Positions 7,567 to 51,929 of a DNA stretch of 51,929 nucleotides are shown here, piece after piece. The translations under genes were made by a program, and so were the position numbers. The notes under the pieces were generated by a model. That model ran no database searches. It saw only the letters and a program-made list of their open reading frames with translations, and was not told the origin of the DNA. Origin of the DNA: Atractiella rhizophila (Eukaryota); the NCBI GenBank assembly GCA_021432655.1, contig MU271362.1:1-51929 (forward strand), written 5' to 3'. Each line of letters begins with the position of its first letter. Within the stretch, counting starts at the first letter, position 1.

Positions 7567-8656
7567 TGCGAGGAAGAAGATAAGCTTGGAGCCATCCCGA
7601 TCGAGCGGCGTCCTTCCTCCTCTCCTTCGACGAATGGCCGCCGTTGAGACAGCAGCAAAGCAATGCCTCACAATCTTGGACTATCTTCCGGCTCACTCGC
7701 TCAGGACCCAAGAAGATGGAAGTGCGCGAAGGCGAAAGATGACTGAGAGCCCACGCCTGGTCATGTAAGGCATTGTAGTTCGAAGGTGAATGAAGGATGA
7801 TGAGAGATGGAGGGGAGGATGACGAAAGTGACAAAGGATACTGAGTAGTTAGGGACACATAGCTGGAGGCGAACGGGAAGACAGAGAAACGAAGAGGGAG
7901 CAAGTTGCTGGATGTCATTTGTAAGTAATTCAAACTCCAAAATATCTTGGAAACACACTTCTCTCAAAACACAAACCAAGGCTGATATTCTCTCCTCAAG
8001 GCATACGGTTACCCTACCAAATGCCAGTCTCTCAACTCCGCATCTCTCATCTCGTCCTCTGCTTGGCCCACGAGGGAACGACAGCGGTATTCATCATCAT
8101 GTTCCTTTCATCGGCGACGAATTTTGAACTATGTTAACTGGTCATTGCAGCCTGGGAAAGGGGACAGAGGAGTATCAAACCAAGATGTTCACGACTGCGG
8201 GCACAGACTCTTTCAAACATCCACCTCTTGAATCACGGCATTCATTCACGGAGTTACTCTCTGTGGCCAACACCGTGACAGCCAGTCGTGGTCTTCCTGA
8301 AGTCCAAGTTTTCCGCCTTATGTAAACGCGCACGGCATACCTCTATCACCAGCAACGAACGATCCATCTATCCCCCTATTCTCCTTCATTCTCCCAAGAA
8401 CTTGCTCATCTCGGTAGTCTCGTAGGCTACAGTTTGGGATATCGGCTCATTTATATCGTGAAATTTTTGTTACAGTAATCAAGATGGGAAGGACGATGAA
8501 AAGGAAGATGAAAAGAACGACTTGGATGAGGAGGCTGACGATGAGGATGGTAAAGGCTTATGATGCTATTAAGGCACAATTTATTCTCCACCTTCAGCTT
8601 TCTTCTTCTCTTCTAATGTAGGTTATGGGGAGTAGTCTGCCTCGTCTTCTCAAAAG

Positions 8657-10100
8657 ATGACGGCGCTGGTCCATTTCATCACCCCTTTAGCCAGCTCCAA
8701 AAGGTTCGACCTCTCCATTCTACCATCTTTCCTATCTAGACTACCCGCGTCAGTTCACACACTCCGGATTTCGTTTATCTTGTCTCATTCATTGAACCGG
8801 GATTGGAAACCTGGAGTGATGTCCTCAAAATTGTGGAATTTATCACTTGAACGGGTCAAAATTGTGGTCAACAAGGATGGAGTAATCAACCTTTGCATTG
8901 CCATCAACGGTGAAAATGTCACAGTAACCTTTTTGAAGGTTGAAGGACATCTGTCGGCTGTCAAAAGAGATTTGCTATATAACGGACCGTACACTCGCAC
9001 GTTTCCTCTCCTTCGAGAGAATGCCATATTCACCCCCATGGCTTCATACTCCGAACACGAAGAACGCTTCATCCCCATTAGTGACGATGAATCATCATCC
9101 CTCCACACAGCAAGCATCATCCAACTCTCTGTCCCACCTCCAGACATTCTTCCACGCTCCATCTCATGCTTGCCTATGGAGCTCCTCTCTCTCATATTTA
9201 GTTTCTCCGACAATGCTTCCACCGTCTCTAGTGTGTCCATGCTCTGGAGACATGTTTCCGCTCCTTATTGGGACGAACCTGGTCTTGTGGTGGAAAAGCA
9301 TGAGCGGTTGCAGCACTATCCTGGCGCAGGACGACTGTGGGACAGACTGTTGCTTTACGAGAATATCAGTGTTGGGATGGCGCAAGAGGTCATCACAGGC
9401 TCGCCCAATGCCAGGGAAGTGGGGGTGTGTGCATTTTGGAATGATGAGGAGGTGAAGAGTGTGTTGGATGCAATCGAACGCTTGAAACGTGTGGATGACA
9501 TCAGCTTTAGAACTTGGGGTTCGAGAAAGTGGAGGAAGGAGGAGATTGAGAACTTTATGCAGAGGATGGGTGACAGGATCAGACGGCTCGAAGTTCTCGA
9601 CGTGGAGGACTCTCCCGCTGCAGCCTCAGAAGGCCTTCATCTGTCTTCTCGCCTTGAACACCTGGACCTCTACAAGTACCCACCTCTCCTATCACTCTCC
9701 CTCCCAAGCACCCTCAAGTGCCTCAAACTCTCCAATATTTGTCCACTCCCTTCCTCCATCTCAGAGTCCCTTCTGCCGCCTCTTCTGCACAACCTCACCC
9801 TCGTGCTTGCCCCCTGCTCCGTTACCGGAAGGACCTCCATCCTACCCACTCCGTTTGACCTATCACACCTTACACGCCTCAACGAGCTGATCCTGGACGG
9901 GGGTGAAGAAACGTCAAACGTCGTTTTCCGCAAGTTCTTCAGCACCATCAAAAATGCAAAGGCGATACGTGTGATAACACTCAAGTACTGTGCAGTGGAC
10001 TCGGTTGACTTCCCAGACTTCATCCACTGGTTCTTTGGGAATTGGCGGGTGAGGGGAGCTGAGAAGGGGAATTTGGTTGATGGAAAGGTCATAAGGTCGC

Positions 10101-10153
<53 letters not shown>

Positions 10154-13769: not shown

Positions 13770-14898
13770 ATGAAGAATAAAGTCATGAACGACATGGGTC
13801 TAGAGACAGACAAACCATTCCCTGGTTTCCGCTCAACAGTCTACCCCATCAAGGACCAGAAAGAAAAGAAGTTGGAGGACCTGCTCGAAGGGGAACCGTT
13901 TGATCTCTTCGGTCACCCAGTCAAAGGAACCCACTCCATCATGAAAGGACTCCATTCTGCCACCGACTCACAGTTAGTGTGGGCAGAACATCAATGTAGG
14001 TTCCTGTGCGATTCAGTAGGTCTCGGAAAGACCATGACTGTGACAGGGACCTTAGCCTATCTGCACCACCTTTATAAAACACCTCCACTACCCCAAACCT
14101 GGAGAAGATCCAGGAAGCAATAGTGTACGGGCTCCTCAATTATCAAGGAGAATACAATCCTCCAGCTGGAACAGATGCTGTCAAAAGTCCTCACGATGGT
14201 TTGGGAAGAGATCTACCACCAGAAGTCGAGAGAGATGTAAGGAGAGGTTTCCCAAGATTACTTTGTACTTGTCAAGTCCACAGTCAATCGCATCGCAATG
14301 CTCCTCGAAGACAAGCACGACTGGATCGACCCTTTGAAGAGACGAGGAGAAGACACAATCAAGTACGCCACTCTTCTGAAAGAGAAAGCTAAGATAGCAC
14401 TCACCAGTTACACTTTCCCTCCTTTTCTGAGTAAGCTTCCTACAATCCACATCTAAGCTTATGTTTCATTCAGGAGACACACTCGTCTTTGCGGAGGATG
14501 AGCAGATGAAGAATCTTCCCTCATTATTCATAGTTCCTTATAACCTCATGAACCAATGGAGAACAGAAATTGAGAACAAGATGGATCCCTTCCACCTCTG
14601 GTACCTCATTTATGGCAATGACGTCCATTTCCTTCACAAGAGTCACAAGAATCTGTTGGAGAGAATGAGAAGGACTTCTCCAGCATAGTCGTCATCGTTT
14701 CAGATGGCACCTTGATGACAGAAGTGGCTTGAGAACAGGATTGACATCCACGGGTACGAGAGAAGTCAGAGGCTTGCAAGAAAACACCTTCCATCTTTGA
14801 CTATCGCTTTCGTCTTGCTGGAGTGGACGAACATCACACCTATTGAACAAAGAGGAAACTCACAGCAGCTGTTCACCAGGCATGCTGCCAGGCCCAGG
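13770..14898 (+). pseudogene. SNF2-family ATPase/helicase pseudogene, 5' part
   Basis: Motif I LCDSVGLGKT, motif Ia LFIVPYNLMNQWRTEI, motif II VDEHH near 14820-14840; premature stops and frameshifts; interrupted by the LTR element. Confidence 0.85.
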
Positions 14899-15347
14899 TG
14901 TCAGGCTTGCCCCTACGCATTACCGAAATGCATCATCTGAAGTCATGTGACCTACCTTGCCACGTTCTTAGGGTCACATGTTTACCAATCACCGCTTGCT
15001 CATGCCTGCGCTGTCCGCCGCTTTCCTCTTTCTCACACGAATCGCCGTTCAGCAAACCTTACACATTTCGCCGGCCTGCACCGTTCCCATTTTCGCCCTA
15101 TTGTACTTTCTGACTAGTACCGCTCAGTATATCTTATTTCTGAGTATTCCCTTCATTGCTTTCCTGTTCTAGTTATCTTACGTGTTTCAAGAAACATATG
15201 TTACAGTTTATGGCAGTACTTTACATATGTATATATACATCGAGATGTTGTGGTGGTGACCTTAGAGGATTCTCTTAGGTTTACCTCCACTACAGGTCAG
15301 TCTTCATGTCATATCATGCACTTAGGTTTATCTCCACTACAGACGCA
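14899..15347 (+). repeat. 5' LTR, subtype A, 3'-truncated
   Basis: Starts TGTCAGGCTTGCCCCTACG; similarity to other LTRs stops after CAGACGCA, where the sequence jumps into the RT C-terminus. Confidence 0.9.
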
Positions 15348-17718
15348 GCTTGATCATTTCCAGCAGAGGGATCGAACCGGATCCAGTGAAAGTTGCAGGA
15401 GTGATGGATTGGCCGGAACCAAAAAACATGAAGGAAGTCCAAATGTTCCTCGGTTTCGCTAATTTCTATCGCCGCTTTTGTGACAGATTCAGTCACATTG
15501 CACGACCTTTATATGAACTGACGAAAAATGGGGGTTTCCTGGGTCTGGGGGGTAGATCAACAACGTTCGTTCGCCGCTTTGAAACAGCTCATGACTTCGG
15601 CGCCCGTCTTGGCGCATCCCGAACAAATAGGACGGTTTTGGCTCAAAGTCGACGCGTCAAATTTCGCGACAAGCGCCGTTTTGTCGCAAATGAAGCCTGA
15701 TGGGAAGTTTCATCCTCTCGGTTTCATGTCAAAATCGCTCGACGCTGCCCAGAGGAACTATGACACCTACGACAAAGAAATGCTCGCGATTATGCGTGGA
15801 CTGCAAGAATGGAGACACCTTCTTCAAGGTACTGATGAGCCATTTCTGATCTTGACCAATCACAAAAATCCCGAATATTTCAGAATGCCACAAAAGTTGA
15901 ATCGGCGACAGACGCGCTAGATCACTAAACTTGCATCTTTCAACTTCACTCTTTTACACCATCCCGGACGAAACTCCGCAAAACCAGATGCGCTCAGTCG
16001 GCGACCAGATCACAAACCGGCGACTTGTGACAACTTTGACGTAGTATTACTCCCAGAACGTTTTTTCAACACGGATCGTATCACGATCAACGCGACTGGG
16101 AGCGCGGTTGCGCTCACAACACAAATGTTGGAGTTGAGTATACTGGAACGTGTGAAAAAGGTACCCGAACGGGAAGAACAAGTAGTCAAAGCCTTGAGAG
16201 AGATCCTAGACGAACCAGTCGACGCAGTTCGCCGACGGGAGTGGCAAGAAGTCGATGGCGCTGTCTATTTTCACGGAAAACTCTACATTCCCCGCGACGA
16301 CGAAATTCGCCGCTCGATTTTCCAAGACCTGCACGATTCGCAAATCGCCGGTCATCCAGGCGTAAAATCGACGATGGCTCTCGTAAAAAGGTACTACTGG
16401 TGGCCGGGTTTGGCGCATTACGTTCGCCGCTATGTCGGCGCCTGTCACACTTGCCACAGAACAAAAAACTTTCCTTCCCCACCTGTCGGGTTTTTGCAAC
16501 CAAACGACATTCCCACGCGTCGATGGCAAATTGTCAGCATGGACTTGGTTGGACCACTCCCAGAATCTGGGGGGTTTGACACGATTTTCGTCATAGTAGA
16601 CAGACTCTCAAAACGCACCCATCTCATCCCCACCCATTCGACGATGGATGCAGAAGGCCTTGCAAGACTTTTCGCGATCACGTATGGAAGTTACATGGAC
16701 TTTTCGATGTCGCAATTTTCGATCGAGGCAAAGAGTTTGTGTCCAAATTCACATCCGCGCTTTTTCGCCTATTAGGTATCAAAGGCTCACCATCGACAGC
16801 CTATCACCCGCAAAGTGATGGTCAGACCGAACGCATGAACCAAGAGGTTGAACAATATTTGCGCATTTTCTGCAATCACCTTCAAGATAATTGGGTGGAA
16901 GGACTTCCCAACGCAGAATTTGCGCTCAACAATCGCGTCAGTTCGGCGACAGGCGTAACTCCTTTTTCGCTCGATTGCGGTCAACATCCCCGCATGGCCT
17001 TTGAACCCATCTCCGACGAGGACGTTCCCGCGGCGGCGCAATTCGTCGAAAAGATGCAAATCGCCGACCGGGAAGCACAAGCGGTACTCGAGCAAGCAGC
17101 AGGTCTCATGGCAAAACATTATGACAGAAAACACGCACCGGCGCCCGAATATCACGTAGGCGATTTCGTCTGGTTGAGCGCGAAAAACATCAAATCGACG
17201 AGACCTATCAAAAGTTAGACGACAAATGGCATGGCCCTTTTCGTGTTTTGCAAGTTTTGGGTCCCCTCAACCTTAAACTCGAGTTGCCATCCTCATGGAA
17301 GATACATCCAGTGTTCCATGTAGGTCTAATACGAAAAGTCAACGAAGACGACATCCCGGACAGAGTCCAGTTGCCCAAACCACCTCCGGAATTGGTGAAT
17401 GGAATTGAAGAATGGGAAGTGGAGAAAATTGTCGATGGAAAATGGTTCGGTACCTGAAATAGAGTTTTCAAATATCGCGTTCGATACAAAGGGTATTCAC
17501 CATCTGAAGATGAGTGGATCAACATCACAGATCTAGAAAATTCACAGGATGCTATAAAAGACTATCACACTGCACACCCTCTCGCAGTTCGTCCCGATTC
17601 CATACCGAACTCCGCAAAAATCGCCCAAATGCGCGTTTTCGTAACCTTCGACGAAAACGCGCTGAAGGGTCTTCCTCACTTTAAGGGGTCCAACACCCCT
17701 ATATGCCTTGCCGGGTGA
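15348..17718 (+). pseudogene. pol: pol remnant: RT end, RNase H, integrase, chromodomain
   Basis: FLGFANFYRRF; VDASNFA...YDKEMLAI (RNase H); HDSQIAGHPG...CHTC zinc finger; SMDLV, STAYHPQSDGQTERMNQ (integrase core); GPF and IHPVFHV; EEWEVEKIVD...YRVRYKGYSPSEDEW chromodomain. Several frameshifts and stops; final frame ends at TGA 17716-17718. Confidence 0.95.
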
Positions 17719-18059: not shown

Positions 18060-18254
18060 CTTATTACACCAAAACACCACCTGGTCAACTTCGAAAAATT
18101 CCTCAAATTGCGAGGTACACAATGTCTCTTTGCTCCAACAATTTCATCTCTGTCCGAGCGGCGGCTGGTACTTCAGGCACTTTTCGCAAAATTGGCAAAC
18201 CTTACGAAGCAGAAGTTTCTGCTTACTGCAAGCACCACAGAAACTGGGGGGTGT

Positions 18255-18677
18255 TGTCAGGTTTGCATCTTACGCAAATCGGCGCCCGTTCGCCGGATTG
18301 CGTCTACTATCGCCCATTTGCGTTCCCTGCGAATCGGCCCCCGTTCGCCACTGCCTCTCCCGGCGCCCGTTCGCCCATTTGCACCTACATCACCACTTAG
18401 CCCAATTGTGCCTATCCTCCTCTTATTAACTCCGCGTAATCCCAGTGTCACTTCCCCTTTTAGTTCTCTTACATGTTTCATCTGCTCTCCTCTACGCACT
18501 GTGGCAGTGTTATTCCGCTTGTATATATAGATCAGAGAGTAGTGGAGGTGACCTTAGAGTATTCTCTTAGGTTTATATCCACTACAGGTTAGTCTTCATG
18601 TCATATCATGCTCTTAGGTTTATCTCCACTACAGACGCATCGCCTATCGGCGACCGCACATAGTGTCAGCCCTAACA
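18255..18677 (+). repeat. 3' LTR, subtype B
   Basis: TGTCAGGTTTGCATC...GCCCTAACA; highly similar to the LTRs at 19202 (inverted) and 27705. Confidence 0.95.
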
Positions 18678-19201: not shown

Positions 19202-19617
19202 TGTCAGGGCAAACACTATGTATGGTCGCAGACGGGTGATGTGTCTGTAATGGAGGTAAACCTAAGAGAATAGCATTGCACAAGAAGACTAACCTGTAGT
19301 GGAGGTGAACCTAAGAGAATACTCTAAGGTCACCTCCACTACTCTCCGATCTATATATACAAGCAGAATAACACTTGTAGAGGAGAGCAAATGAAACATG
19401 TAAGAGAACTAAAAGGGGAAGTGACACTGGGATTACGCGGAGTTAATAAGAGGAGGATAGGCACAATTGGGCTAAGTGGTGATGTAGGTGCAAATGGGCG
19501 AACGGGCGCCGGGAGAGGCAGTGGCGAACGGGGGCCGATTTGCAGGGAACGCAAATGGGCGATAGTAGACGCAATCCGGCGAACGGGCGCCGATTTGTGT
19601 AAGATGCAAACCTGACA
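19202..19617 (-). mobile_element. Solo LTR, subtype B
   Basis: Reverse complement of the 18255 LTR; TG...CA ends; flanks CCGTC / CCACC are an imperfect TSD. Confidence 0.92.
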
Positions 19618-21003
19618 CCACCATGTTCTCCCCCGTATGCGGGCCAATGAGTTCTTCAAACCCGACACATACCTCATTCAAGTCCCACTTGCTATCAATG
19701 AAGTGTGCATTAACACAGAGGAATGCATAGTGATTTTCTGAAGTCCAGTTGTCAAGTGAGAGATGGATCTTTGTTCCAATAGCCTTTCCTCATGCTTCAG
19801 TCAGCTGTTACAGAAGCTTCCAAATGCGCACCTTTAGATATCTAGCCATTTCTTCCATAGTTTTCAAAGCAAGCTTACATACACGCTCCTTCAGAACCTT
19901 TCAACTCGGTATTTCACTTGTTCTCACTATTCTCTTCTTCCGAAAAGCGGAGTCCTCCGTTTTTGGTATCTGAAATTTCAATCTTGGAGGCAGAAGGTAG
20001 TGTCTACTGAAGATATATTAGAAGTTCCTGAAAGGATGGACTTTCTACAATGCTGAATAGAAGGTCTTCTTTGACAACAAAGTGAGTAAGGAGGTCCTCG
20101 AAGATAGTAGGATTAAAACCCTATGTATCATATGGTCAGCTTCTACCGATTTCTAAAAAAGCACAAACCTGTGATCCATACTTCTTTGCTACTTGTCGCA
20201 GGACATCATCCATTCCTTGGTCCTTTCTTGCAGCTCTGGATCCCTCTTTCGAATAAATCTAGATGGAATATCAGGTGCACATGAGAACACTAAATGAATG
20301 ACTTTGCAGCTTAAAGGGATGAACTGGTATTTTACCTGCTGCCTTCTGCATCTCCTCCTCGGTGATCAACATCTCCTTGTCATGCTTTTCCTTCAAAAAG
20401 CTGAAGAACGACCTGATTGAGCAGCCATGATTTTCCAGGTGATTACGGAGAGTCTTCGTATTGCCATTGCTGGCAGCTAAAGAACGAACGACTCTAGGGC
20501 AATGATTGCACTTAAAGTACTTATCGCCTTCTTTATGCTTCGGTTTGAGATATCCAGGGACATCCTCCCACTTTAAGGAATGGTAGAAGTAATGGACAAC
20601 TGCACGGTGGTGATTGTAGGTGACAACTAAACCCTGTGCTTCCATCCATCAGTATTTTGACAGCAATGTAGTGCACATACAATGTCTTCAGTTGCCGTTT
20701 GGTTAGTGCCCCGGAAAGTTGACTTTGCAACAACGGAGCCATCAGAATGAAGCTGTCCACATTTAGCTATTGTCAGATGTTTCACAGGCACTGTCATGTA
20801 GAGCACACCTTTCTCTGCTTGTTGTCCTTCTTTAAGCCATCGATTTTCAATGGTAAGATCTCTGCAATCTCAGCTGCATCAATATCAATGGGGTCAGGCT
20901 CCAGCCTTGCATCCTCCAGCTCCTCTTGGTGCCCATCCTTCTCATTGACTGTGTAGGCTCCATCTGGTCCTATCGGATCAACGAGACCTTCGGGCAGAAG
21001 CAT
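19618..21003 (-). pseudogene. hAT-superfamily transposase relic with BED zinc finger
   Basis: YFKCNHC...NTKTLRNHLENHGC (BED finger); SLDNWTSENHYAFLCVNAHFIDSKWDL...GFEELIGPHTGENM (start of the hAT catalytic domain); cut by the solo LTR. Confidence 0.85.
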
Positions 21004-25966: not shown

Positions 25967-27134
25967 GCAGCCGTGGACACTCGTTTTACTTATTTTATCA
26001 CCTCATTCCCAGTTCCGTTCGTTGAATTTCCTTTCAGTCATTCATTGATACCCAATATCTGCTCGTGACATTCTTTCGTTCAACATTCCCCTCTCCAAAA
26101 TGTGATATACATGTACTTTGGTTGGCTGGTCGACAATCTCACACGTTTGAAACAAAAACCTAAACTCTGCCTTTGCGATAACCCCGAGCGACTGTGTCTT
26201 TGTCGACTCCTATGAATTGCCCTCCCAAGCCAAACAGCCCGTCGTCTTCAAGTTGCAGGTCTGATTCCGTTCCAGTTCTGATTCTGCATAACTTGCTCAA
26301 GAATGGCCGGGAACAGTGTGTTGCTAGATTGCCAGATATCCTCCAACTCGGAAGACGAGTCCTGAGTGCATTTAAGTATTTGCAGGCTTTTGCAAAGAAG
26401 CAACGACAGTTTGACATGTTCTTGTCCGCTCCGGCTGCTCATTCAAATAATAGTATCCTCAGCGGGCAGCTTATACATGTCTTCAAAACCTAATGAAGGA
26501 AAATGGTCTCCGGCCTGGGGCTTTTTCGATTTCCTCAGGTTGAAACCACCAAGAGCGGATGGTATATGGCGAATAGTACAGTCGTGTCGACAGGTTGATG
26601 AAAAATGATAGAGTGTCCAAGCCTGAGTTGTCAACGCAATGTTCAGTGCTCGGCGTTTCAACGTCCCATGTTCAACTACAGCTCAAGCTGCCTCCAGATC
26701 GCAATGGTCATCCCCGACCTGAACGAAGTTTAGGACGGTCTTTGTCGAGCTCAAACACGATCATCCGGTGACATTCCTGCTGCACGCAGCACTTACCGAC
26801 TTGCATCCGAGCCCCTCAAGGGGCTACTAACTTTACAAACCTGGTCCCGCCTCTTTTCTGCCCGCCCAAATCTAACATTACAACCTGCACCTGCCTCTAA
26901 GCGTAAACACAAAGGTGACATCTGAGAAATGAAAAGATAACTTCCTGATCAAGTGTCTTGTTCATTCAAATCTTCAAAACTGATAAGTTTGTGTCTCACG
27001 ATTCAGACATGAATTGTACAGAATTCTCTTTCCAGCCCCTTTATTCTTGCCAAAATTATTGCAAGGAAGAAGCAAAGACGTGCTCATGAAATAATGAGAG
27101 GGAACAAAAGAAACATCATTGAATGCTCAGCAGA

Positions 27135-27597
27135 AGCCAAATAGTAGCCATCATAGCTGTACCAGCATTGGGGACAAGCATGTTCACAAGGATTCTGTAC
27201 TTTTTTCCTTCGACAGAAAGTGCCTTGGAGAATCCAAGAATTGCAGCCTTTGCAGTCAAATAGTTGGCTTGTCCAAAGTTCCCAAACAGCGCAACGACGG
27301 AGGTAGCATTCACAATTGACCGTATTTCTGTGCGAGGAAATGAGGCCATGCTGCTTTGGTGCAGGAGTAGGTGCCTTTGAGGTGGACGGAGTAAACCAGG
27401 TCCCATTCTGCGTCGGTCATGGTGGTAAAGGATTTGTCCTAAGGATACTGGCATTGTTGACCAGAATCTGCAGCATCGATTCAGCCTGGCTCAGCATATG
27501 GAGAAGAGAAGTATACATGAACTGTGCCAAAAGCATCAATGGCGGTCTTGATGACCTTTTCTCCTTCTGTCACAGAATCGGTGTTAGCGACAGCTTG
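27135..27597 (-). pseudogene. Fragment of a Fox2-type peroxisomal multifunctional beta-oxidation enzyme (SDR domain)
   Basis: AVANTDSVTEGEKVIKTAIDAFGTVH / ILVNNASILR / KSFTTMTDAEWDLVYSVHLKGTYSCTKAAWPHF / GNFGQANY.TAK...NMLVPNAGTAMMATIW; two frameshifts; retains an intron. Confidence 0.85.
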
Positions 27598-27704
27598 ATG
27601 ATCATGCTGCATTTTTGCCAAGGTTGAAAAGAGCTGGCCATACAAGGTACCTGAAAGCACGAAGAAGGCATGCACTTGTTATTACTATAATGCAACAATG
27701 TTGG

Positions 27705-28117
27705 TGTCAGGTTTGCATCTTACGCAAATCGGCGCCCCTTCGCCAGATTGTGTCTCCTGCTGCCCATTTGCGTTCCCTGCGAATCGGCGCCCGTTCGCCA
27801 CTCTGCGTCTCCTGTTCGCCGATTTGCGCCTACATCACCACTTAGCCCAATTGTGCTTATCCTCCTCTTATTAACTCCTCGTAATCCCACTGTCACTTCC
27901 CCTTTTAGTTCTCTTACATGTTTCTTCTGCTCTCCTCTACGCTCTGTGGCAGTGTTATTCCGCTTGTATATATAGATCCGAGAGTAGTGGAGGTGACCTT
28001 AGAGTATTCTCTTAGGTTTATCTCCACTACAGGTTAGTCTCCAAATGTCATATCATGCCCTTAGGTTTATCTCCACTAGAGACACATTGGCAACTGCACA
28101 TAGTGTCAGCCCTAACA
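27705..28117 (+). mobile_element. Solo LTR, subtype B
   Basis: TGTCAGGTTTGCATC...GCCCTAACA; no matching TSD (GTTGG vs GGCAA). Confidence 0.92.
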
Positions 28118-28335
28118 GGCAAATGGCCCCTCATTCACATAAAATACAAATGGGCAATGGGAGACACAAAGTGGCGATGGCAAGTGCAAGTCGGCAAATG
28201 TGAGACACAGACTGGTGATGGGGTGATGGGAGTGCCGACGGACGGACAGGTGCCGACTCACACAGAACTCAAATGGGCGACTGGAGATGCAAAGTGGCGA
28301 ACAGGCGCCGATTTGCATGGGATGTAAACCTGACA
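28118..28335 (-). mobile_element. Truncated, diverged LTR 5' end in inverted orientation
   Basis: Ends GGCGCCGATTTGCATGGGATGTAAACCTGACA, the reverse complement of a subtype-B-like LTR start. Confidence 0.75.
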
Positions 28336-28519
28336 ATTGAATAGTAAGTACTTTCCTCACTAACCTGCACCAATGAATGCTACATCTAACAATAATATAA
28401 GTGGGATTGCTGAAACAACAAATGCCTTGCACCAAAAATCCTGGAAGCCATTGTGTAGCCCCCTTAGATGTATTACCCTTGTGCAAAGATGCACCACACT
28501 ACTGCTGGTGCAACCGTCC

Positions 28520-30391
28520 GTTGTGCCAGAGGGTCAAAATGATGTACCTCCGTACACTAGTAGCATATGACTAAACAGGATTGTTCTCTCCTTCTCTCCA
28601 CCGCTTCTTATTCTTGAACAACAACGCAATTAAAGGACACAGACTGAAAAGTCAAGACTTGTCTTACACGTAGGTCGGGGACTGGCGCACGGCGCCGCTA
28701 CGATCCAGGTAATCAACAATCAAGTTGGAACTGGAACACCCTTGGCGTCCCAACCCATGGAAAACCATGAACCAGTGATTAGTTTATTGGTTCATGAAAT
28801 TCAACTAGTTTAAAGCGTCGAGAAAGACGTATTTCTTTAGAGCACCGTTTTCCAACGATAAGAGTACAGGGGGTAGCTAGCAGTCAGAACACTATGATGG
28901 CTTTACACTGTACAGCTCGACAACCAGCTTAGCCTTAACAAAACATCCCTTCGGGGAAACTTGGCAAAGTTACCAAATTTACATTCCAGCTCGACCAAGT
29001 AACCGCAGGAAACAACTACTTATACTTTTAACTTACCCTTCGTTGACACGTCAAAATGGCAAAGGTCTTACCTTGATAACTTAAAAACTGGTTAGCTCCG
29101 CACTAGCGTTTTAATATATCGAGATTGCAGGCTTCTAACTATTTTTGGAATCCAAGTGTGAGACGAAGTATTTGTCGTAGATCCTGAAGCGTAGGAAGAG
29201 GAGGTCTCATACTTTAAAGCTCCACCATCTCAGAGGAGGTACTGACTCAGAAGCGCTCTTTTTACACCTGAGCGTTAACACCGGTGACGAAGTCGCAGTT
29301 CGCGAGCTAACAGGCGTTGAGACGATTCACTAGGTTCTCCCTTAGTAGTAATCCTCTGGCTCTTATGAGTTCCAACTGTCAAGCATAAAACCCAACCTGG
29401 AGAGCTTGAAGCGCTTTCTCAGCGACTTCCGATTGCGGAGCTAGAACCAGTTTGAACTTTAGATTGGCTACGGTGTCTGCGGAAGCCGGAAGTACGAAGG
29501 AGAACACAAAATTGAAAAGTTTCCGTGACTTACCAAGCCCTAGCTTTAAAGCTTGAGACCGTAAGGTATCGGACGTATGAAAACGCGTTGTAAACGTCAG
29601 ACGACGTACCGAAAGAAAGCGTTGGAGGTAATTTTAGTACAGGTTTTAAAGGTCACCGTGTCTTCACTACCCGCTCACCAGACCTTAGCAGCTCTTAACC
29701 TTATAGGTATGTGCCTTTCTAAGCGGAAGGAGGTCTTAGAGTTCGCCGCCACATCGTAGCGGTCACCACCGCCCTCGACTCTGTCCTAGACAGCTCTCTG
29801 CTTTGAAGGTACGACCCTATCTTAACTCGCTCTTGAGAGGATCCTTACTTGGTCGTAGTTACTTGCACCGGAACCCGGGAACCAGGTCTAGCGTAAGTTA
29901 ACAGTACTGGAAACCTATGACTAAACCCAGAACCAAACGACGTATTAAGAGCCACGACTAGTGCTGCCTTCCCCTCAGCTTTTCACTAAACGGCAATAAG
30001 CTGCTCATTTGGACTTGCAAGCCGCACAGCAAACTTTTCGTTACGTCTTTTGGAACGTGTAGTCAACGCTTCACTGGCCTTTCCGTGGTTACATTTTCTA
30101 CTTTTGAAGTAGGAAAGCTCGCTTCACGTCCGATGTTTACTTCCACAGGTCGAGTTCGTCTATATTAAACTGAGAAGAAGTTCCCTTCGACCTGCTCGCC
30201 CTCTTCCTTTCTGCACTTCTTAACCTTCCGTAAGACCGCTTTTGTTAGACAAGGGTAAACTTAGGAAGTACGAGAGCTGAGCTTAGACGTGGGCTTTGAG
30301 TTCAAGTTAAAGCTTTCTCGTAACCTGGAACTAAGAATGCAAAGGGTGGTTGTGTGGAGTGGCTAACTAAAGACACTCACGAAGTACCGGC
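28520..30391. other. Mirror-image block (reversed, not complemented) encoding an F-box/LRR-like paralogue; probable assembly artefact
   Basis: Reading the + strand right to left without complementing gives 350 open codons (30107 to 29058) containing SPITSVPLEILDMILMEV...CAKVCRLWNA, and later LDMSHFGSITRLTIDGGHENSNL. Left boundary approximate. Confidence 0.88.
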
Positions 30392-30465
30392 NNNNNNNNN
30401 NNNNNNNNNNNNNNNNNNNNNNNNNNNNNNNNNNNNNNNNNNNNNNNNNNNNNNNNNNNNNNNNN
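30392..30465. other. Assembly gap (74 N)
   Basis: Run of n characters. Confidence 1.
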
Positions 30466-32687
30466 CATAGCCCTCTTTTTCCGCCAATGGGATGAAGATG
30501 AGCTGCGTCTTGCGCGCATGCCTGGAGTTAGGCTCACTGAAGGAATGACTTGACGTATAAATACATATGATGTGTCGACAATGAGACGTGCTGTCGTGAA
30601 CCGCATATCATTGCACATCCATTACACCTGGAAGCGTCCTTGGAATCAAACACATTATAAGAGTGCTGATGCAACCGTTCCGGCGGAGCAGTGGACGGAT
30701 TGAACCTCAGTCAATATCCTCCACCAGCCACAGAACGCTCTTATTTCACCGTCACGACTAGGATAAGATCAAAACCCTCGAAACTGGGCAAAAGAGGTCA
30801 GTTGGCTGATAGGTCACAAAATACGTTGGCCCTATTGCTCCTCTAACCCCACTGACCAGTAGAGTATATCTTATTGCGAATGGATTGTGGTATGCGTCGG
30901 GGAACCAAAGGCAGAAAGTTTGGGCAGGAAAACATCCTAGCTGATGAGGCATTTCATAACAGAGACGAGAGCTTCCGAGCATGTGCATTCCATGAAGAGC
31001 CCAGGGACAGAGTAAAATGAGACTAAGTTACATGCGTGAAGACTGAAAAAACAAACAGCCAATTTATTTCTTTGCTGAGTTCCTTGCCTGCTTCCTTATT
31101 ATCATTCAAAATGGAGAGGGACATACCGATAGTGCTTTCAGCGGATCCTCTTTGCATTGTGTCAGGCGCTGCGTCTCTCTTCTCTTTCCCATCCCAGCCT
31201 TGTACCATTGTTGGCAAATACTCTAGTTCTGCTCTAGTCATCTTTCCACGAGTAATACCTCTCTAACGATTATTCTCCAAGGACTATATATTTATTGCTG
31301 ACAGTAGGAGGAGGCAGTAATGACAAAATATTCGTAGTGATCAAGCCAATGACATTAGGGGTGCTTTTAGGGTGAGAAAGCGCCGGGTATGGTGGTGGTG
31401 AGTGCCTATGTTGCAAATTACAGTAATGTTGGCGAAAGATGTTGACATCTCAAATGTGGAAGGATATGAAAGGTAGCCCAAATATCGTGATCAAACGCTT
31501 ATCGAAGAACCTCTCACGCGTTATGTACGGTGGGAGGAAAGGGTTCTATTTGCTAAGCAGTGCCAATTAATATACGCTGACGGGATCCAGTGAGAGAGAT
31601 CCGCTCACAGCGATGCGATCCTCACAAATGATGACCCTAATCGTCCTCACAGGTGTTCATGTTCAACCTCTGTTTGGCGGTTCAACGACGATGAGTCGAC
31701 AGCACAATCAATTCTGCTACATTTCTGTCTATGTATTTTTGTCCCCTTTCGAGGTGAAGATCTCAGGAACCAAACCACAAACAACACGAGTTTTAAAAGG
31801 ACGTCTATTTGTTAACCAGAGTAAAACGTTCCTTGAACTTTCAAGTCGCGACCTTGTTGCCTGCGGAAGTCAAATCATTGTTCCCTTGTCCTCTTCGCTG
31901 CCTGTCCTTGTTATGGGTTCCCTAAATACCCATCCGTCGTATAAGAATGGCTTGTTAGCGACTCCATCCGCAGAGTAACGCGTCGTAAGTGGTGGAAACG
32001 TAAATCGCACCTTCCACAACTGTACAACTGGAAGCAAAAATAGGGAGACAATGATGCACGCCCCGACAGAGAGCGAAGCGCGTCTGTTGCTCTCTTTGCG
32101 GATGAGTCGGGGAGCTGAAAGAACGGAAACTTTTGGGAGGTTCGAGGACTCTTCTGCGGTGGGAGTGCAGAACGTGGCGGAGATGATGGCCGTGGATGAA
32201 GGAGTATCGAAAGATTCGGTATGCTTTCTCCTGTTCTTTCAGTTATCGAATACACCTTGAATGGACTAGCAGGAAGAACATCACCCCCGTATATATGAGC
32301 AGCAAGTGAGCAAGTTTCCTGTCATTCCGCCAAGCGAAAGCCCATACCTCTCCATTCATAGATGGACGACAATGCCTCGCACCCTGAACTCTGGGATCAC
32401 GAGGAACCGTCTGGTGCAACGCTAGTATGCAGAATTTAGACTCCCTGTATAAGTCACTCACTCCATCGTAGATCGACCTTTTCCTACGCCCCCTCCCCTT
32501 TCCCAACCTGATCTACCACTCCTTTCCTCCGCCTACCCAAAGAAAGCAAAGAAGCCGACGACTCGACCGCCGAACCGCAGAGCTTCGGCATGGCCCATAT
32601 CCTGCTGATGCCTCCAGCTGCCGAGAGGAGAGGGAGCCCGGGAAGGCGACTAGGCAATCAGGACGGAGGAAGGAGAAAGGGAAGGAG

Positions 32688-34527: not shown

Positions 34528-36958
34528 TGCATACGTCAGTTCTGGAGATCGAGCTGAAAGTATGTAAGCAGTTTAGCTAATTTCGATAAGGCACTGCAGT
34601 CGAAAACCTCACGTGAAAATGCCACAGGTTCAGTTTCTGGTATGTGCTCGAAATACTCATCAGGCTCTGTCGCTGATGATGACCCGACAGAGGTTACTGA
34701 AACCACTTTATCTGGTACCTTTAAAGAGTTAGAATCTGGTGCACATATCGAGCGTAGAGAAGCGGCCGTTTCCCAAATGTGCCATGGCGGCAGTTGATTC
34801 GGTGCAATCCATTTTGGACATGAAGGAGGATCTAGACGGACGCTGAGCACTATTGCAAAGGCAAAAATGAGAATGACCAGACACACGGAAAGATCACATA
34901 CCACTGCGAGGTCGCTTTGGTGACAGATCAGACTTTTCGTAGAGTTTCTTCGATTTGTTAAATACCCAAGCCTGCCTCTCTCCTGTCTTAGGATGGACAA
35001 CATCAAGAGTGCTGCCTTCTCGCGGGGCGATGATGCCACTGATCATTTCTCTCCAAGCCTCAAAATCAACTGGCGTTCGTTCTAGTTGCCTTTGTGCTCT
35101 CACACGCATCCAACGCTCCAACTGGCAAAACCAGAGTACTGAACCTGACGGAAGCTTTGGCTGCACAGCTCACAAAATGTGAAGGAGGAAGGAGCGAACC
35201 GAGAGGGAGGGTACCACCATTGGGCATGTACTCCAGATCTGGATAGAAAGCATGATTGTAACATCGTCCGGACTGTTCTTATCCATCAACTCCATGGGAA
35301 TGGATACTGAAGATGGTAACGCGTGACGCACGCAGACTTTAGCCTGGTGATTGGGTGGTTGAACTGTTGGGTGTTGATTAGCATTGCACTGATTGTTAAA
35401 ACGAGAGCGTACTGTACTGGGCCCGGTAACTGACATGTCTCTCACATTCGCCTTTACAGTAATCCACGGTGTGTTCACCCTGACAAAGAGCATCGTAGCA
35501 AGCAGGGTCGTAAGGTCTTTCGAAATTTGAGGGGTAATTGGCCTCTGCAACCCTTTGGAAACGCAACATGTTACCTCATAGGCGTTGCGAGCAGGATTGT
35601 CCATAATATATGTAATCTCTACGTGACTTCGAACCTTTGATAATCCCACACCACTCCTTCAGTCGACCTTATTCTGAAGTGTCGACATGTTTGCTATCCT
35701 TTCCTCGGGATCCTTGCTCTCCATTCATTCACCAACGAGTTACCTCGAACTTTGAGCCAATCCTGTGCTCAATTTGACCTCCCTTTGTCAATGTTTGGCC
35801 CACCGCATTTAATAACTTTCATATCGCATTTCATTCGACGAATCAAGACTCGATCAGTGCTGATGTGCACCCCAAGCTTCCTTCAACCTGCTGACCCCCT
35901 TATTTCGCGTAGGAGCGGGAGCGGAAGAAGGGGAAGAGTAAGTGGAGACGGAAGCTCGTAACTTCCCCTCGAGCTTTAAGCTGAATCAACTCCCGATCAC
36001 CGTAACCTTCACTATCACGAGCAGGCATTATATAGAGCTGACTAAGGCAGGCTGCAAATCGTGACTGGGTAGCCGCGAAGGCAGTGGCCATGATCCATCA
36101 AAATAAAACCAGCAAATGAGCCCTGAAAGAGCTAGATGGGGTTTGGGGTCTGGGTACGTTGAGATCTGAGGAGTAAGAGGAGAAGCAAGCTTGTCCCATT
36201 ATATCACTATTACAGTCTAGTTCTGCCGAGCCAAGTCAAATTGTTTCGATGGGTTTTTATGAACAACGTCCCAGCTGTGGTAGTCCTACCCACGAATGCT
36301 GAAAGCAGCAGAAGTATATAGCTCTCTGTACAGTTGCATCGGGGGAGACACAGTTGAAGACGAGCAGGAATATATATTCATCATCGAAAGGAAAGAATGC
36401 TAACTAAGAAGCCTGATCGTGCCTTTACCTTTCCATCATCAGTTACGGACCGTCGATGTGTGAAGTTGTAAACGCTATCCAGGCCATTTGATCAAGGTCC
36501 TTGGCAAACCGACATTCCACTCCTTGACCGCCATTGCATATCCTATACGCCGTGGTACATTGAGCGGTGACGATCTCAGAGGAGCCGGAGCGCAATCATT
36601 CAACAAACCGATCAGTGTTGGTTCTACTGTAAGCTTGGCAAGTTCTACTGCAAGGAGAAGGTTTTACCGAAGTAGCCAGGAGAGCTGAGGGGCCGTTATT
36701 CCAACAACGATCCTCATTTAAATCTCCAACCCTTTTCAGTTGTTGGCGCAATGAGCAAAGGTTTACTTTTACCGCCAACCCCACTTTCTCACTGGCTTGT
36801 ATATTGACTGTCGCTGGAACTCTCCTTCACCAGACGGCGTGTTGCCTCCTCCACCTACCTCAGTCCGTCGGTGTCTTGGCTCCTCGCGCTCCTCACTTGG
36901 TTAATATATTGTCTGGACGCGGGCGACGATGTCAGCCGAGATGTATCCCGGAAGTAGG

Positions 36959-36965
36959 TATAAAA
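36959..36965 (+). promoter_or_regulatory. TATA box of the peptide gene (second copy at 39005-39011)
   Basis: TATAAAA beginning 65 nt upstream of the ATG. Confidence 0.6.
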
Positions 36966-37023
36966 GGATCGTTGGCTGAGCCAACCCGCCAAAATCAATT
37001 GATATTAGCTGAAAAGAAACAAA

Positions 37024-37293
37024 ATGAGATTCACTACCGTTACTTCCTTCCTCACTGTCATCCTTGCTGCTCAAGCACTCGTTCCAGTAAGCTGCCTCTT
37101 CAAAAACGCGACGTGTTACTGATATCTATCATAGTGGTGCAACTGCCCTAGTTCGTGGTTTCTCTTACGAATTGCATAACCGATGAATGATTCTTGCACA
37201 ACAGCTGGCGTTGCCTGCTCCGGTGAAGCTTGCACTGCTGCACAGTTGGCTGCTGGATGTACCACGAAGTGGGATACTGGTGTTGGATGTTAA
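37024..37293 (+). CDS. Small secreted cysteine-rich peptide, 55 aa, copy 1
   Basis: Exons 37024-37086, 37135-37150, 37205-37293 with GT-AG introns give MRFTTVTSFLTVILAAQALVPWCNCPTGVACSGEACTAAQLAAGCTTKWDTGVGC; signal peptide plus 6 Cys. Confidence 0.82.
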
Positions 37294-37681
37294 GAGACTG
37301 AAGTTCGTTGATTCCTCCCTCATTGACGTCTGAAGCTCAATTCCGTGCTCTCACCGAATCAAGTGTCAATCAAGCGATGAATCTGATGTAGATTCTGATG
37401 GAATTCATGTTTTGTTGCACGCGTCAAATTGTGCCATCGCTTTGCGACCTGAGTCGGGTCCTACATCAGGACATCGTAATTTGAGGTTGGATGGACACTG
37501 TAGACGAAAACTTCGTACAGGTTTCCATACTAGCAGCTATTCAAACTCATTCCAGCGTCTCCAATACTTCCGAGGCAGCAGCAAGGAGGAGCGATTCTCT
37601 CGATGCTATGAAAGTATCAAGACGTGATCCGAAGTTCAGAGAAGGGTTCTCAAGAGTAGTGATAATTATGCTGCATCTCAA

Positions 37682-38832
37682 CTACCAACAGCTCTCCCCA
37701 GAGGCCGAATAAACGCCATCCTGGTAAGGCCAGATGCGCTCAAACTTTTGGCGCGTCATCTTCTCTTTTGCCTGCTCCCAACATTCTTCTTTGAACTCCT
37801 CCAAGGATTTCTTTGCCTCCTCATATTCGTCCTCGTCCACCCTGCCTTCTCCATCGCCGCAATTAACCAGAAGCTGAGACGCGACAGATTCCCAACCTTC
37901 GATCATATCCACCTCCTCCGATTCGCTCTCAAGTACCGCTCTTTCTTCCTCAGAGAAAGAGACAGGACAGTGTGCACCGTTTCCAAACAAAGCTGGCCAA
38001 ACGTCAGATAGCTGGATCAGGCACCGACGCAAATGGAGGAGGGAATGCTGGTTCCAAGTACCGGTAATAAGGTCAAAGGGACCTTTGAAAATGCAAGCAT
38101 CCTCATCAAACAGCCCCTGGCGCAACTGTGGATAGGGAGACAGGAATGCGAGATATACCTTGTGCAAACGTGCCTGCCACATTTCTCGCAAGACCACCTT
38201 CTGCAGTTCTTCGTCGAGCTCGCGAAGTTTTCGGGTTTCTGCGGCCTTGTAAGGCCGTCTGGTAAGGAGACTAGGCCGGATGCACTACCTTGCCAGTCAA
38301 AATGACGCGGAACCTTCGCCTGTAGGAAGAGCGGTGCGATCGTGGTCGACTGCCAATCAAGGACGGCAGCGATTTTTGGAACAGCTTCGGCGTTGTTGAT
38401 AACAATATTAGCTGGTGATAGATCTGGATGATGGAGTGCTTTTGAGAGGATTGGAGGTGGAATAGTGCTGACAAGCTTTGGAAGTAACTTCTCGAGAGCC
38501 AGAAGTGTGTTGATATGGATATTAGGATCGTTTTGTGAGCCATCACGAAACATGGGATCGGAATTATCATGAGGAGAGGCGGTTTTGAGATACTGGATCT
38601 CATTCCTAATTATTGCGGTGAAGTAATCTATCGGTGAAGTCCCTGAAGCCGTGATTCAGTGAATGTGAGGAGATAATGGAGATGCGCTACAAGGTCCTCT
38701 ATCTAACCCTAACGATCCCTTCCCGGCCCAGAATTCACGACTGACAATGGGACCGATTCTGAAATCGTTGGAAATGTCATCATCCGGGACATCGTCACCG
38801 TCGTACAAGCGACGGCGTTGGAGGGATTCATC
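37682..38832 (-). pseudogene. 5'-truncated, frameshifted duplicate of the kinase-like gene
   Basis: Lacks the N-lobe; 1-bp deletion near 38222 relative to the intact copy. Confidence 0.9.
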
Positions 38833-39069
38833 ACTCACTGGCTTGTATGTTGACTGTCGCTGGAACTCTCCTTCACCAGACGGCGTGTTGCCTCCTCCAC
38901 CTACCTCAGTCCGTCGGTGTCTTGGCTCCTCGCGCTCCTCACTTGGTTAATATATTGTCTGGAGGCGGGCGACGATGTCAGCCGAGATGTATCCCGGAAG
39001 TAGGTATAAAAGGATCGTTGGCTGAGCCAACCCGCCAAAATCAATTGATATTAGCTGAAAAGAAACAAA

Positions 39070-39339
39070 ATGAGATTCACTACCGTTGCTTCCTTCCTCA
39101 CTGTCATCCTTGCTGCTCAAGCACTCGTTCCAGTAAGCTGCCTCTTCAACAACGCGATGTGTTCCTGATATCTATCATAGTGGTGCAACTGCCCTGGTTC
39201 GTGGTTTCTCTTACGAATTGCATAACCGATGAATGATTCTTGCACAACAGCTGGCGTTGCCTGCTCCGGTGAAGCTTGCACTGCTGCCCAGTTGGCTGCT
39301 GGATGTACCACGAAGTGGGATACTGGTGTTGGATGTTAA
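39070..39339 (+). CDS. Small secreted cysteine-rich peptide, 55 aa, copy 2
   Basis: Same three-exon structure; differs by T7A, T27A and one synonymous change. Confidence 0.82.
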
Positions 39340-39729
39340 GAGACTGAAGTTCGTTGATTCCTCCCTCATTGACGTCTGAAGCTCAATTCCGTGCTCTCAC
39401 CGAATCAAGTGTCAATCAAGCGATGAATCTGATGTAGATTCTGATGGAATTCATGTTCTGTTACACGCGTCAAATTGTGCCATCGCTTTGCGACCTGAGT
39501 CGGGTCCTACATCAGGACATCGTAATTTGAGGTTGGATGGACACTGTAGACGAAAACTTCGTACAGGTTTCCATACTAGCAGCTATTCAAACTCATTCCA
39601 CACCGTCTCCAATACTTCCGAGGCAGCAGCAAGGAGGAGCGATTCTCTCGATGCTATGAAAGTATCAAGACGTGATCCGAAGTTCAGAGAAGGGTTCTCA
39701 AGAGTAGTGATAATTATGCTGCATCTCAA

Positions 39730-41662
39730 CTACCAACAGCTCTCCCCAGAGGCCGAATAAACGCCATCCTGGTAAGGCCAGATGCGCTCAAACTTTTGGC
39801 GCGTCATCTTCTCTTTTGCCTGCTCCCAACATTCTTCTTTGAACTCCTCCAAGGATTTCTTTGCCTCCTCATATTCGTCCTCGTCCACCCTGCCTTCTCC
39901 ATCGCCGCAATTAACCAGAAGCTGAGACGCGACAGATTCCCAACCTTCGATCATATCCACCTCCTCCGATTCGCTCTCAAGTACCGCTCTTTCTTCCTCA
40001 GAGAAAGAGACAGGACAGTGTGCACCGTTTCCAAACAAAGCTGGCCAAACGTCAGATAGCTGGATCAGGCATCGGCGCAAATGGAGGAGGGAATGCTGGT
40101 TCCAAGTACCGGTAATAAGGTCAAAGGGACCTTTGAAAATGCAAGCATCCTCATCGAACAGCCCCTGGCGCAACTGTGGATAGGGAGACAGGAATGCGAG
40201 ATATACCTTGTGCAAACGTGCCTGCCACATTTCTCGCAAGACCACCTTCTGCAATTCTTCGTCGAGCTCGTCGAAGTTTTCAGGTTTCTGCGGGCTTGTA
40301 AGGCCGTCCGGTAAGGAGACTAGGCCGGATGCACTACCTTGCCAGTCAAAATGACGCGGAACCTTCGCCTGTAGGAAGAGCGGTGCGATCGTGGTCGACT
40401 GCCAATCAAGGACGGCAGCGATTTTTGGAACAGCTTCGGCGTTGTTGATAACAATATTAGCTGGTGATAGATCTGGATGATGGAGTGCTTTTGAGAGGAT
40501 TGGAGGTGGAATAGTGCTGACAAGCTTTGGAAGTAACTTCTCGAGAGCCAGAAGTGTGTTGATATGGATATTAGGATCGTTTTGTGAGCCATCACGAAAC
40601 ATGGGATCGGAATTATCATGAGGAGAGGCGGTTTTGAGATACTGGATCTCATTCCTAATTATTGCGGTGAAGTAATCTATCGGTGAAGTCCCTGAAGCCG
40701 TGATTCAGTGAATGTGAGGAGATAATGGAGATGCGCTACAAGGTCCTCTATCTAACCCTAACGATCCCTTCCCGGCCCAGAATTCACGACTGACAATGGG
40801 ACCGATTCTGAAATCGTTGGAAATGTCATCATCCGGGACATCGTCACCGTCGTACAAGCGACGGCGTTGGAGGGATTCATCGACGTCCTTTTTGAAATAA
40901 AGACTTCCGATTTGAGAAAACGACAGTGTTGACCATTGATTCTGCATGCCAATGGTATCTTGAATGATCCTGCCCAAGCGTTTGCTATCCAATAATTTTT
41001 CGGGTAAGTGGTGTGTTAGCAGGTCACCTTGCACAAATTCGTAAAGGATGTATTCGGATCCAACGGAGTCACTGGAAGCGTCGCAGTTCCAAGCAACAAC
41101 ATTTGGGACGGGAAGTTTGAATTTTCGGCGGACGAAAGACATCGTAGCAACTTCGCTCTGCGTTAAGAGTTTCTTCGGACCTGCGTTTGGGAAAGGAAGA
41201 CGGGCGACGAGCTTTTGTCCTGCTTGGAAGCTTAGCAGAAAAAGACGGTTGTTGCTTCCTGCAATTCTCAAGTCAGCACTTATGAGAAGGAATGCGCAAG
41301 AGAAAAGAGTACCTTCAGCAAGAGGTTCGAGTGATGTGCAGGCTTCAGGAGTAAGCCCAAGCGCTTTACAGCCTGTGGCTTTCAAGGCATCAACATTGAA
41401 TTCAATGTGACGAAGGTGCTTTTCTGTTGAAGTTACATCAGTCAAGTATCAATTATTAATAGAAAAAAGGTAGCGGAGCACGGTGATCCTCGTTGTAGAG
41501 CCAGCGTGCCTTTGTATCGAAGAGATACGGTTCTGTTCCACTTTTCAGAGTATCTCCCTGAGGACAGACACACTACTCGCCGTGTTTAAGCAACGAGCTC
41601 ACGGCGCGTCTGGCTGTGGTACCAATTGAAAGCGAAACTTGGAAGAGGTGTTTGGACATCAT
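39730..41662 (-). CDS. Protein-kinase-like phosphotransferase (APH-like, Aim9/Fmp29 family), multi-exon
   Basis: FDTKARWLYNE, GSNNRLF, VARLPFPNAGP, SEVATMSFVR, VGSEYILYE, FSQIGSLYF, LDRGPW, HPDLSPANI, VLDWQ. First exon (ATG at 41662) is inferred. Confidence 0.88.
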
Positions 41663-46429: not shown

Positions 46430-47261
46430 ACATCTTTACGGGCACTGCCTCCCACATTTACGAAGAGTTCGTTGAACAGAACAGAAAGTGCGTGTTTTTG
46501 CCACAGACACTTGTGTCACGCCAACTGTGGTTTAGTTGGCTGGGGTTAGACGATAGGACTGAGCGGTCGCGCAGAGGTGAACATCTCGGTGCGAGAAAGC
46601 ACTCTTGTGCAATGTAGACAGAAAGGACTCGATTCGGCTGCAGTTGAACCCCTCAGTCAGTAAATCAGCTAAGATTGAAATCAGTGAAGATCCATGACAG
46701 AGCATTTACGTTCAATCCCTCCATCCACCCCATCCACTGCCTCCTGGCACTCCGTGTTCTCCCTCATCAGCATTGTTGGCTCTTTGCTCACGCTTGTTCT
46801 TCCCCCTTCCGTACTCCTCCTTATTACAGTTCTGCGTTCCTATTTCCCTTAGACTTTCGACAGTAAGACCTACGGCCAGCTACTTTGAAATGGAACTAGG
46901 ACCACCAGGTGGTTTTAAAGTTCGCATTGAGGGAGCCAGAACTGGGGGGGATGCTGGCGCTGAGGTGGTTTCTATGTGTCAATAAAGCAAGGGCCGCTTT
47001 TATTTCTTTGCGATTGTTATGAGGCGTAAACCTGGAAAGTGGTCCTCACAGCATGGGCGGGGATTGTCATTGAAAACCGCTGGCGAATGAGAGTTCGACG
47101 TTGTTTGTACGGTCGCTAGAAATTTAGGGGTCTTTTGGAACGTCCATGCTCTGCGTAATGACTAGCAGGGTTTAGACACGCCTCCTATAGCAATCAATGG
47201 GAAGGAACCGCAGTTAGTCACAAGGGGATTTAGACATTGCAGATTCAAAACAGACAGCGAC

Positions 47262-51080: not shown

Positions 51081-51929
51081 TTTTTCACCCAATCAATTCC
51101 CCATACCGATGGCACAACTGGTCCTACTAGCTTCGTCTCACGAACGGCCACGAGCTTCAACAGCCCTGCGATACATTCTGGTGGGTCTGGCATACACGCT
51201 CAAGTCGCGAGGCCCTTACTGTACGAAGGGGTACCATTACTTCAGGTCAGAATTACCAACTTGATATTTGGAGAGTGGATTCCGCTAAATTCACTTGTTT
51301 TAGGAACTATCTTTTGAAGAACTCCTCCTAGGCTTTACAGGGCCTACGCCATCAGATCACGCTACCAGTTCTTCTCACGCGCCCTCTAGTTTGAGCTCTG
51401 GCGACGTCTTCACAACGCACATCTCTAACAATGTCAATAGAAGGATGCATCTTTCAATCGATTCAGAGCATGATGATGGCAGCAAGACGCCTGATATACT
51501 TCAAGTTCTCCAGAAGGTTAGCCTTATTTAATTCATTGCCTTTCTTCTTTTCTCGGTTGTTACGACTACTCCCTCTTTGTGCCTCACGGTCCCCCGTCAC
51601 CTACCCCACCTACCTCCCCTAACTTCCATTACGAGGCAGTACCTAGAAGCGACTAAAGTTAGAATCGACTAAATGACTCACTCCCCCAAGTTGACGTCGG
51701 CTTAGCTCAGGAAAGACAGATGTAACGTGTTCTCACGAAAGAGCGTAGCTCTACAATTGGAGACGCGCTGGCGAGTCAGGATAGCAGATTGGGGTCGGTT
51801 GATTTGGTGTCAACCGCACTGTGTTCACAGAACACCGTTTTTTGTGCGTGAAAGACAAGACAAGTTGCTTGAGAAGCATTTACACCCTCCGTCACGGGCA
51901 TTTCTACCGTTTGAATCTCTCGTTTTCAG

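Follow-up and report, generated by a model that had tools for sequence, protein, structure and literature searches.

The first 51,929 nucleotides of contig MU271362.1 of Atractiella rhizophila (assembly GCA_021432655.1), the stretch of DNA analysed here and called the window hereafter, hold a block of 1594 bp (28798..30391, unstranded) in which plus-strand text is written in reverse order and uncomplemented. We regard it as almost certain that this mirror block is an in-silico assembly fault and not new biology. Comparison with a normally written allele shows that the true sequence is the block reversed in place, with its gene on the plus strand; so reversed, it encodes residues 46-463 of the allelic protein P0127, with introns and four single-base indels. 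The original prediction had already proposed a scaffolding or gap-filling error, and this explanation is borne out by the allele, which spans both junctions, by a public contig that bridges the block and the adjoining gap, and by the occurrence of a second mirror block.

Evidence for mirrored text

The longest stop-free stretch in 28798-30391 measures 68 codons on the plus strand and 84 on the minus strand, against 164 when the text is only complemented and 350 when it is only reversed. The last of these, an open frame running from 30107 to 29058 (29058..30107, unstranded) that had been pointed out in the original prediction and was recovered here, is the longest reverse-only frame of the whole window. 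As regards composition, the excess of TA, AC and GT that had also been noticed was confirmed: the three dinucleotides stand at 0.96, 1.19 and 1.04 in the block and at 0.62, 0.88 and 0.89 elsewhere, while AT is at 0.39 in the block versus 0.95 in the rest of the window. The dinucleotide polarity is accordingly inverted, with an index of -0.125 compared with 0.065 ± 0.020 in the rest of the window, and a cross-validated Markov model gives -50.6 for 28520-30391 compared with 36.5 ± 10.0 for 94 other windows of the stretch. It is only when reversed and left uncomplemented that the block reads as native sequence, both in its polarity and in its match to P0127. Since the open frame, the polarity, the Markov score and the likeness to an in-window paralogue (P0001) and to a profile of its family, described below, all point the same way, the mirrored text is real, and chance falls far short of accounting for it.

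That the reverse-only frame and its family likeness could be a chance product of repetitive or biased sequence has a probability close to nil. It is true that mirrored native coding DNA yields frames of up to 220 codons, the maximum among 117 overlapping block-sized control tiles, and that, on its own, the paralogue in the window shows no more than a modest likeness (E 1e-4 to 2e-4). Against this, none of 2000 base shuffles contained a reverse-only frame of at least 350 codons, the family profile scores 27.8 bits on the reversed block while 500 shuffles gave at most 1.7, and the reversed text and a database protein, P0127, share 98% identity over 391 residues. When the whole window was compared, no mirror copy of its other parts was found for the block 28798-30391.

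Regarding the limits of the block, the original prediction placed its start at 28520. The sequence 28520-28797 is ordinary, being matched as written by public contigs over 28326-28634 (with 2 other letters) and 28460-28695 (with 6), and by one that reaches 28797, so the block is 278 bp shorter than had been thought. The first change-point of the Markov score, at 28545, was considered as a left edge and rejected, because the score is flat over 28545-28800 and both the contigs and P0127 give 28798. On the right, the block adjoins an N-gap, as had been stated: 74 N at 30392..30465 (unstranded), the sole N-run in the window.

A normally written allele

P0127 (KAH8921842.1, hypothetical protein BT69DRAFT_1298399, Atractiella rhizophila, 518 aa) was among the 99 proteins obtained when 1.84 billion representatives were searched with a profile; used in turn as the query of a word-based search, P0127 found no match but itself among 5530 candidates. 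Of 153 family proteins, 106 match the region when it is reversed; as written, it is matched by 7, all 7 in the flanks only, and on the reversed window 98 of 98 matches lie inside the mirror block.

P0127 is collinear with the plus strand if the two flanks are read as they stand and the block between them is reversed in place. Its residues 1-14 are found at 26668..26709 (plus strand, 14/14 residues), separated from residue 15 by a segment of 1,993 bp. Correctly written coding sequence resumes at 28703..28797 (plus strand) with residues 15-46, which contigs cover as written, and the match across the left flank and the junction amounts to 41 of 42 residues (15-56). Within the reversed block, residues 72-463 match at 383 of 391 positions, in consecutive segments of 201/203, 89/91, 44/46, 4/4 and 45/47. 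The gene ends at 30466..30553 (plus strand), again correctly written, with residues 491-518 and the stop codon (28/28 residues).

The edges of the block thus fall at assembly discontinuities, and reversal restores continuity to the base. The codon of D46 straddles the junction 28797/28798, and among 16 junction positions tried, the one after 28797 gives 17 of 17 residues while the remaining ones give 5-8 of 17. At the other end, P0127 implies 79 missing bases at the gap (27 codons less two bases present), to be compared with the 74 N of the record.

The two alleles correspond to the same locus, with the matches lying in order across the insertion, the flanks and the reversed block, and they differ in several respects. 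KAH8921842.1 is written normally, on a separate contig of 79,461 bp, unlike the mirrored block of this record, from which it differs by 9 substitutions and four single-base frame differences, and it lacks the 1,993-bp insertion that follows residue 14 here. Its gene model also omits eleven residues that are in frame in this record. These residues, which correspond to 29367-29399 as written (read in the reversed block), align with the family profile, and the NCBI model seems to treat their 33 nt as an intron. As these in-frame residues are dropped, the P0127 model may contain faults of its own.

The 1,993-bp segment (26710..28702, unstranded), present here and absent from the P0127-type allele, contains one copy of a repeat together with a fragment of a short-chain dehydrogenase, and the same 4 bases open and follow it. 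Its right end (28520-28702) had fallen inside the block as initially delimited. It could be either an insertion polymorphism or the counterpart of a deletion in the other allele. The dehydrogenase fragment lies at 27119-27490 on the minus strand (Pfam adh_short, E 2.9e-9), and a high-copy repeat is located at 27702-28117.

Reversal or complementation

Text of this kind could also arise if the block had been complemented in place, by a whole-scaffold reverse-complement that skips lower-case (filled) bases or by a colour-space slip, in which case the gene would lie on the minus strand. Text like this is well known to come from case-blind complement tables and from base swaps in colour space, and a lower-case-skipping reverse-complement or a colour-space swap would leave the complement in place. 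Inside the block this explanation is indistinguishable from reversal, the same 106 of 153 proteins being matched. Nevertheless, it would leave P0127 residues 12-46 and 491-518 on the plus strand and residues 71-466 on the minus strand in the wrong order, whereas reversal in place reads through the junction without a mismatch and, at the second mirror block, completes a plausible intron and frame. We therefore judge complementation in place to be very improbable. The complement-only version that the original prediction had put forward for read mapping meets the same objection, as the central part of the gene would then fall on the minus strand between two plus-strand pieces; since complementing has this consequence, the repair to be made is reversal in place.

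Public contigs across the locus

The independent data consist of contigs of four public runs (X1-X4), not raw reads, and cover of the block was judged at 85% likeness. X1 and X2 come from one sample. The runs carry the P0127-type allele and not the haplotype of this record, as indicated by a G at 28751, with which residue 31 is the E of P0127 instead of the Q encoded in the window, and by the direct joint 26709->28703 in X1 and X2, exactly where residues 14 and 15 of P0127 meet; because of both features, the runs are a test on a close allele and not on the haplotype itself.

Within this scope, the block 28798-30391 as written is covered in none of the four runs (contigs of the other allele, 85% likeness). 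Moreover, in X1 and X2 one contig, known here from its two flanking sides, joins 28797 to 30466, at single-copy depth: 230.9 in X1 and 335.6 in X2, where its neighbours show about 215-220 and 300-345, respectively. X3 is patchy around the block and X4 offers 2 contigs only, both at 26354-26713, so that each was counted solely for missing cover. The text as written is thus missing from independent contigs, one of which bridges its place, the bridge being seen in one sample and both observations in another allele.

Could the mirrored DNA be real?

We know of no polymerase that makes a reversed, uncomplemented product. Reversed, uncomplemented database sequences have nonetheless been read as polymerase products under the name of "swinger" sequences, the one biological claim for such text that was encountered, and PMC4942731 claims such GenBank entries, including a block in an insect mitogenome, as biological. 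The transformation described there is formally the same as the one found here, i.e., a 3'-to-5' inversion, uncomplemented, within regular DNA (PMC4942731), and the block does equal a contiguous piece of the opposite strand with A<->T and C<->G exchanged. According to this explanation, the mirrored DNA would exist in the strain, as the result of a polymerase or repair event with reversed polarity or with an A/T and C/G swap (PMC4942731). In its favour, the contigs tested come from another allele and not from the haplotype of the record.

Several layers of evidence stand against it. The two mirror blocks each stop precisely at a discontinuity that is invisible to the cell, the N-gap in one case and the end of the window in the other; the length of the gap fits the missing codons; and the allele is normal. 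Molecules holding the text as written, which the swinger hypothesis by definition requires, were not found in the contigs of the four runs, which represent another allele, and one contig of that allele bridges the place. PMC4942731 itself says that its author alone describes such sequences as swinger-transformed, and while it interprets them as polymerase products, the block edges at assembly discontinuities and the existence of a normal allele point in the present case to software. Altogether, we consider an event of reversed polarity or base swapping in the strain to be extremely improbable. The wider proposition, that the strain carries kilobases of mirror DNA which knock out genes through an unknown copying mechanism, deserves equally little credence, given that every test run points against it.

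A second mirror block

The assembly fault recurs, two mirror blocks being present within 52 kb. The second one (51549..51929, unstranded) ends the window, and its identity with 46431-46785 is 96.4% in an alignment of 360 bp (E 8e-165); in the self-comparison, 51546-51907 read backwards is 96% identical to 46431-46788. The latter (46431..46788, plus strand) is a partial duplicate and the normally written counterpart, as judged from the self-comparison and from the Markov score, which is +7.8 for this copy and -7.9 for the copy at the window end, identifying the second as the mirrored one. Reversing 51549-51929 in place would plausibly complete a 49-nt GT..AG intron over the junction and continue an open frame. 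Both blocks extend a contig 3' end, running from a clean junction up to a discontinuity, which for the second block is the window end and may not be the scaffold end.

A third candidate, at about 12400-12900, where polarity is low, was rejected: when reversed it has no counterpart in the window, and it matches other repeat copies as written.

A possible mechanism

In the preferred explanation, a fault of assembly, an assembly step would have extended the contig ending at 28797 rightwards into the gap by 1594 bases, with the text of the extension being written in reverse order and uncomplemented, and the leftover of about 79 bases would have been padded with 74 N. The position of both blocks at contig 3' ends, together with the occurrence of indels in base runs, suggests that this step was gap filling or contig-end extension. 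As for the logic error, a minus-strand extension may have been complemented without being reversed, or a plus-strand one may have been reversed. A long-read gap filler such as PBJelly might be a candidate for the program behind the fault.

The fill would have been drawn from low-depth reads prone to base-run errors. Each of the 10 single-base indels (4 versus P0127 and 6 versus the paralogue) can be assigned to a base run, in a block where runs of at least 2 account for 48% of the bases and runs of at least 3 for 17%; in 8 of the 10 the extra base is in the mirrored text. This pattern suggests low-depth reads with run errors, although natural indels favour runs too and the comparators may err. 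The idea that the frameshifts would all lie at the outer end of the extension did not hold, one of them being near the junction.

In the Creative-Commons literature of PubMed Central and bioRxiv, no published description of such an assembler fault was found, and the same collections of Creative-Commons articles yielded nothing relevant on the A. rhizophila assembly.

The gene hidden in the block

The original prediction held that the block hides a real gene from annotation. This is right for the present record, in which the gene is hidden, and too strong for the species, where an allele is annotated as KAH8921842.1. The distant paralogue in the window, P0001 (the 8636/8657 protein; 8636..10153, plus strand), whose own allele is annotated as BT69DRAFT_1282502 (P0002), is about 23% identical to P0127. 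The parallels between the reversed peptides and this paralogue, reported earlier, are present, with 24% identity over 137 aa (E 9e-5) and 40% over 48 aa (E 2e-4).

The similarity of the reversed translation to the F-box family, on which the mirror claim had been made to depend, was recovered with a profile of 60 relatives of P0001 searched against 3488 segments of 12 frames. An F-box-like motif (29553..29663, reverse-only, with coordinates taken from the match to P0127 187-223) lies within profile positions 194-327 (E 1.7e-7), and a conserved motif of the leucine-rich repeat (LRR) region (28826..28924, reverse-only and after frameshifts) corresponds to profile positions 440-472 (E 1.6e-7). P0127 itself remains below the Pfam cut-off for F-box-like (E 0.075, 13.3 bits versus a cut-off of 24.3), which is passed by 2 of the 8 relatives scanned, P0102 with 31.2 and P0100 with 27.9 bits. 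The relatives all belong to A. rhizophila, 60 of 60 in one search and 68 of 68 in another, and the family is a lineage-specific expansion in this species.

From a structural perspective, a 36-member profile compared with the PDB found mostly F-box or F-box/LRR chains among its best matches, with FBXL5 at the top (E 1.6e-4). The model of P0127 has a mean pLDDT of 67, with low confidence in the N-terminal 180 residues and values mostly of 70-97 over residues 180-518, where it shows repeating strand-helix units; the model and the structural matches thus place an LRR solenoid on the C-terminal side of the F-box-like part. Among 48,161 chains, the closest to the model are FBXL2 and FBXL17, both with Z 13.8 (rmsd 6.9 with 287 aligned and rmsd 6.1 with 285 aligned, respectively), and Foldseek gave no match at E <= 0.001, its best being TIR1 (E 3.4e-3). 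As in the FBXL-type SCF receptors FBXL2, FBXL17, SKP2 and TIR1, F-box-like helices are followed in the P0127 model by a beta-alpha repeat solenoid. The fungal protein differs from these receptors in its sequence, with about 14% identity and an F-box that falls short of the Pfam threshold, in its N-terminal part of 180 residues modelled with low confidence, and in having relatives from one fungal species. Judging from fold and family, the hidden gene would encode a protein with an F-box and leucine-rich repeats, most likely a substrate adaptor of an SCF-type ubiquitin ligase.

In the allele of this record, the insertion separates residues 1-14 from the rest, and an in-frame ATG remains at 28757 (plus strand), that of M33 in P0127 numbering. 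The four frame differences from P0127 may be read errors or may be real.

Implications for the use of the assembly

The mirror text has no biological import, as it is a fault of the record and the gene is already annotated from the other allele. Its importance for data quality is modest: genes beside gaps or sequence ends become invisible to six-frame annotation and to homology searches, and gene-family counts and presence/absence calls drawn from this assembly will be wrong. A scan of dinucleotide polarity constitutes a cheap means of finding mirror blocks, for which reversal in place is the right repair. Furthermore, the case provides a worked, mundane explanation for reversed, uncomplemented database sequences of the kind claimed as "swinger" DNA in PMC4942731.

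Other features of the window

The paralogous F-box gene itself contains a run of 46 A (10106-10151), which no GT..AG pair frames and through which the allele P0002 reads straight, with about 44 fewer bases; it may be an assembly fault of another kind or a real gene-breaking insertion. A head-to-tail duplication (36788-38832 / 38834-40881; 2,048 bp, 99.0% identity, 18 mismatches, 3 gap bases) could correspond to two haplotypes set side by side by the assembler or to a recent tandem duplication. On the minus strand at 39733-41448, two long frames show a weak phosphotransferase (APH) likeness, below the cut-off (E 0.026 and 0.0037), the first of them overlapping this duplication. A direct duplication of 955 bp with one mismatch was also recorded (45475-46429 / 48395-49349), and the counterpart of the second mirror block, 46431-46788, starts directly after its first copy.

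Among the repetitive elements stand five copies of 400-460 bp, 77-91% alike and in both orientations, that resemble solo LTRs and were delimited by self-comparison at 12479-12975, 14896-15347, 18250-18677, 19202-19624 and 27698-28117. An integrase remnant is present at 15921-17215 (Integrase_H2C2, E 2.8e-20), and a unit of ~26 bases can be seen by eye to recur head to tail, in three to four copies, at about 50110-50200.
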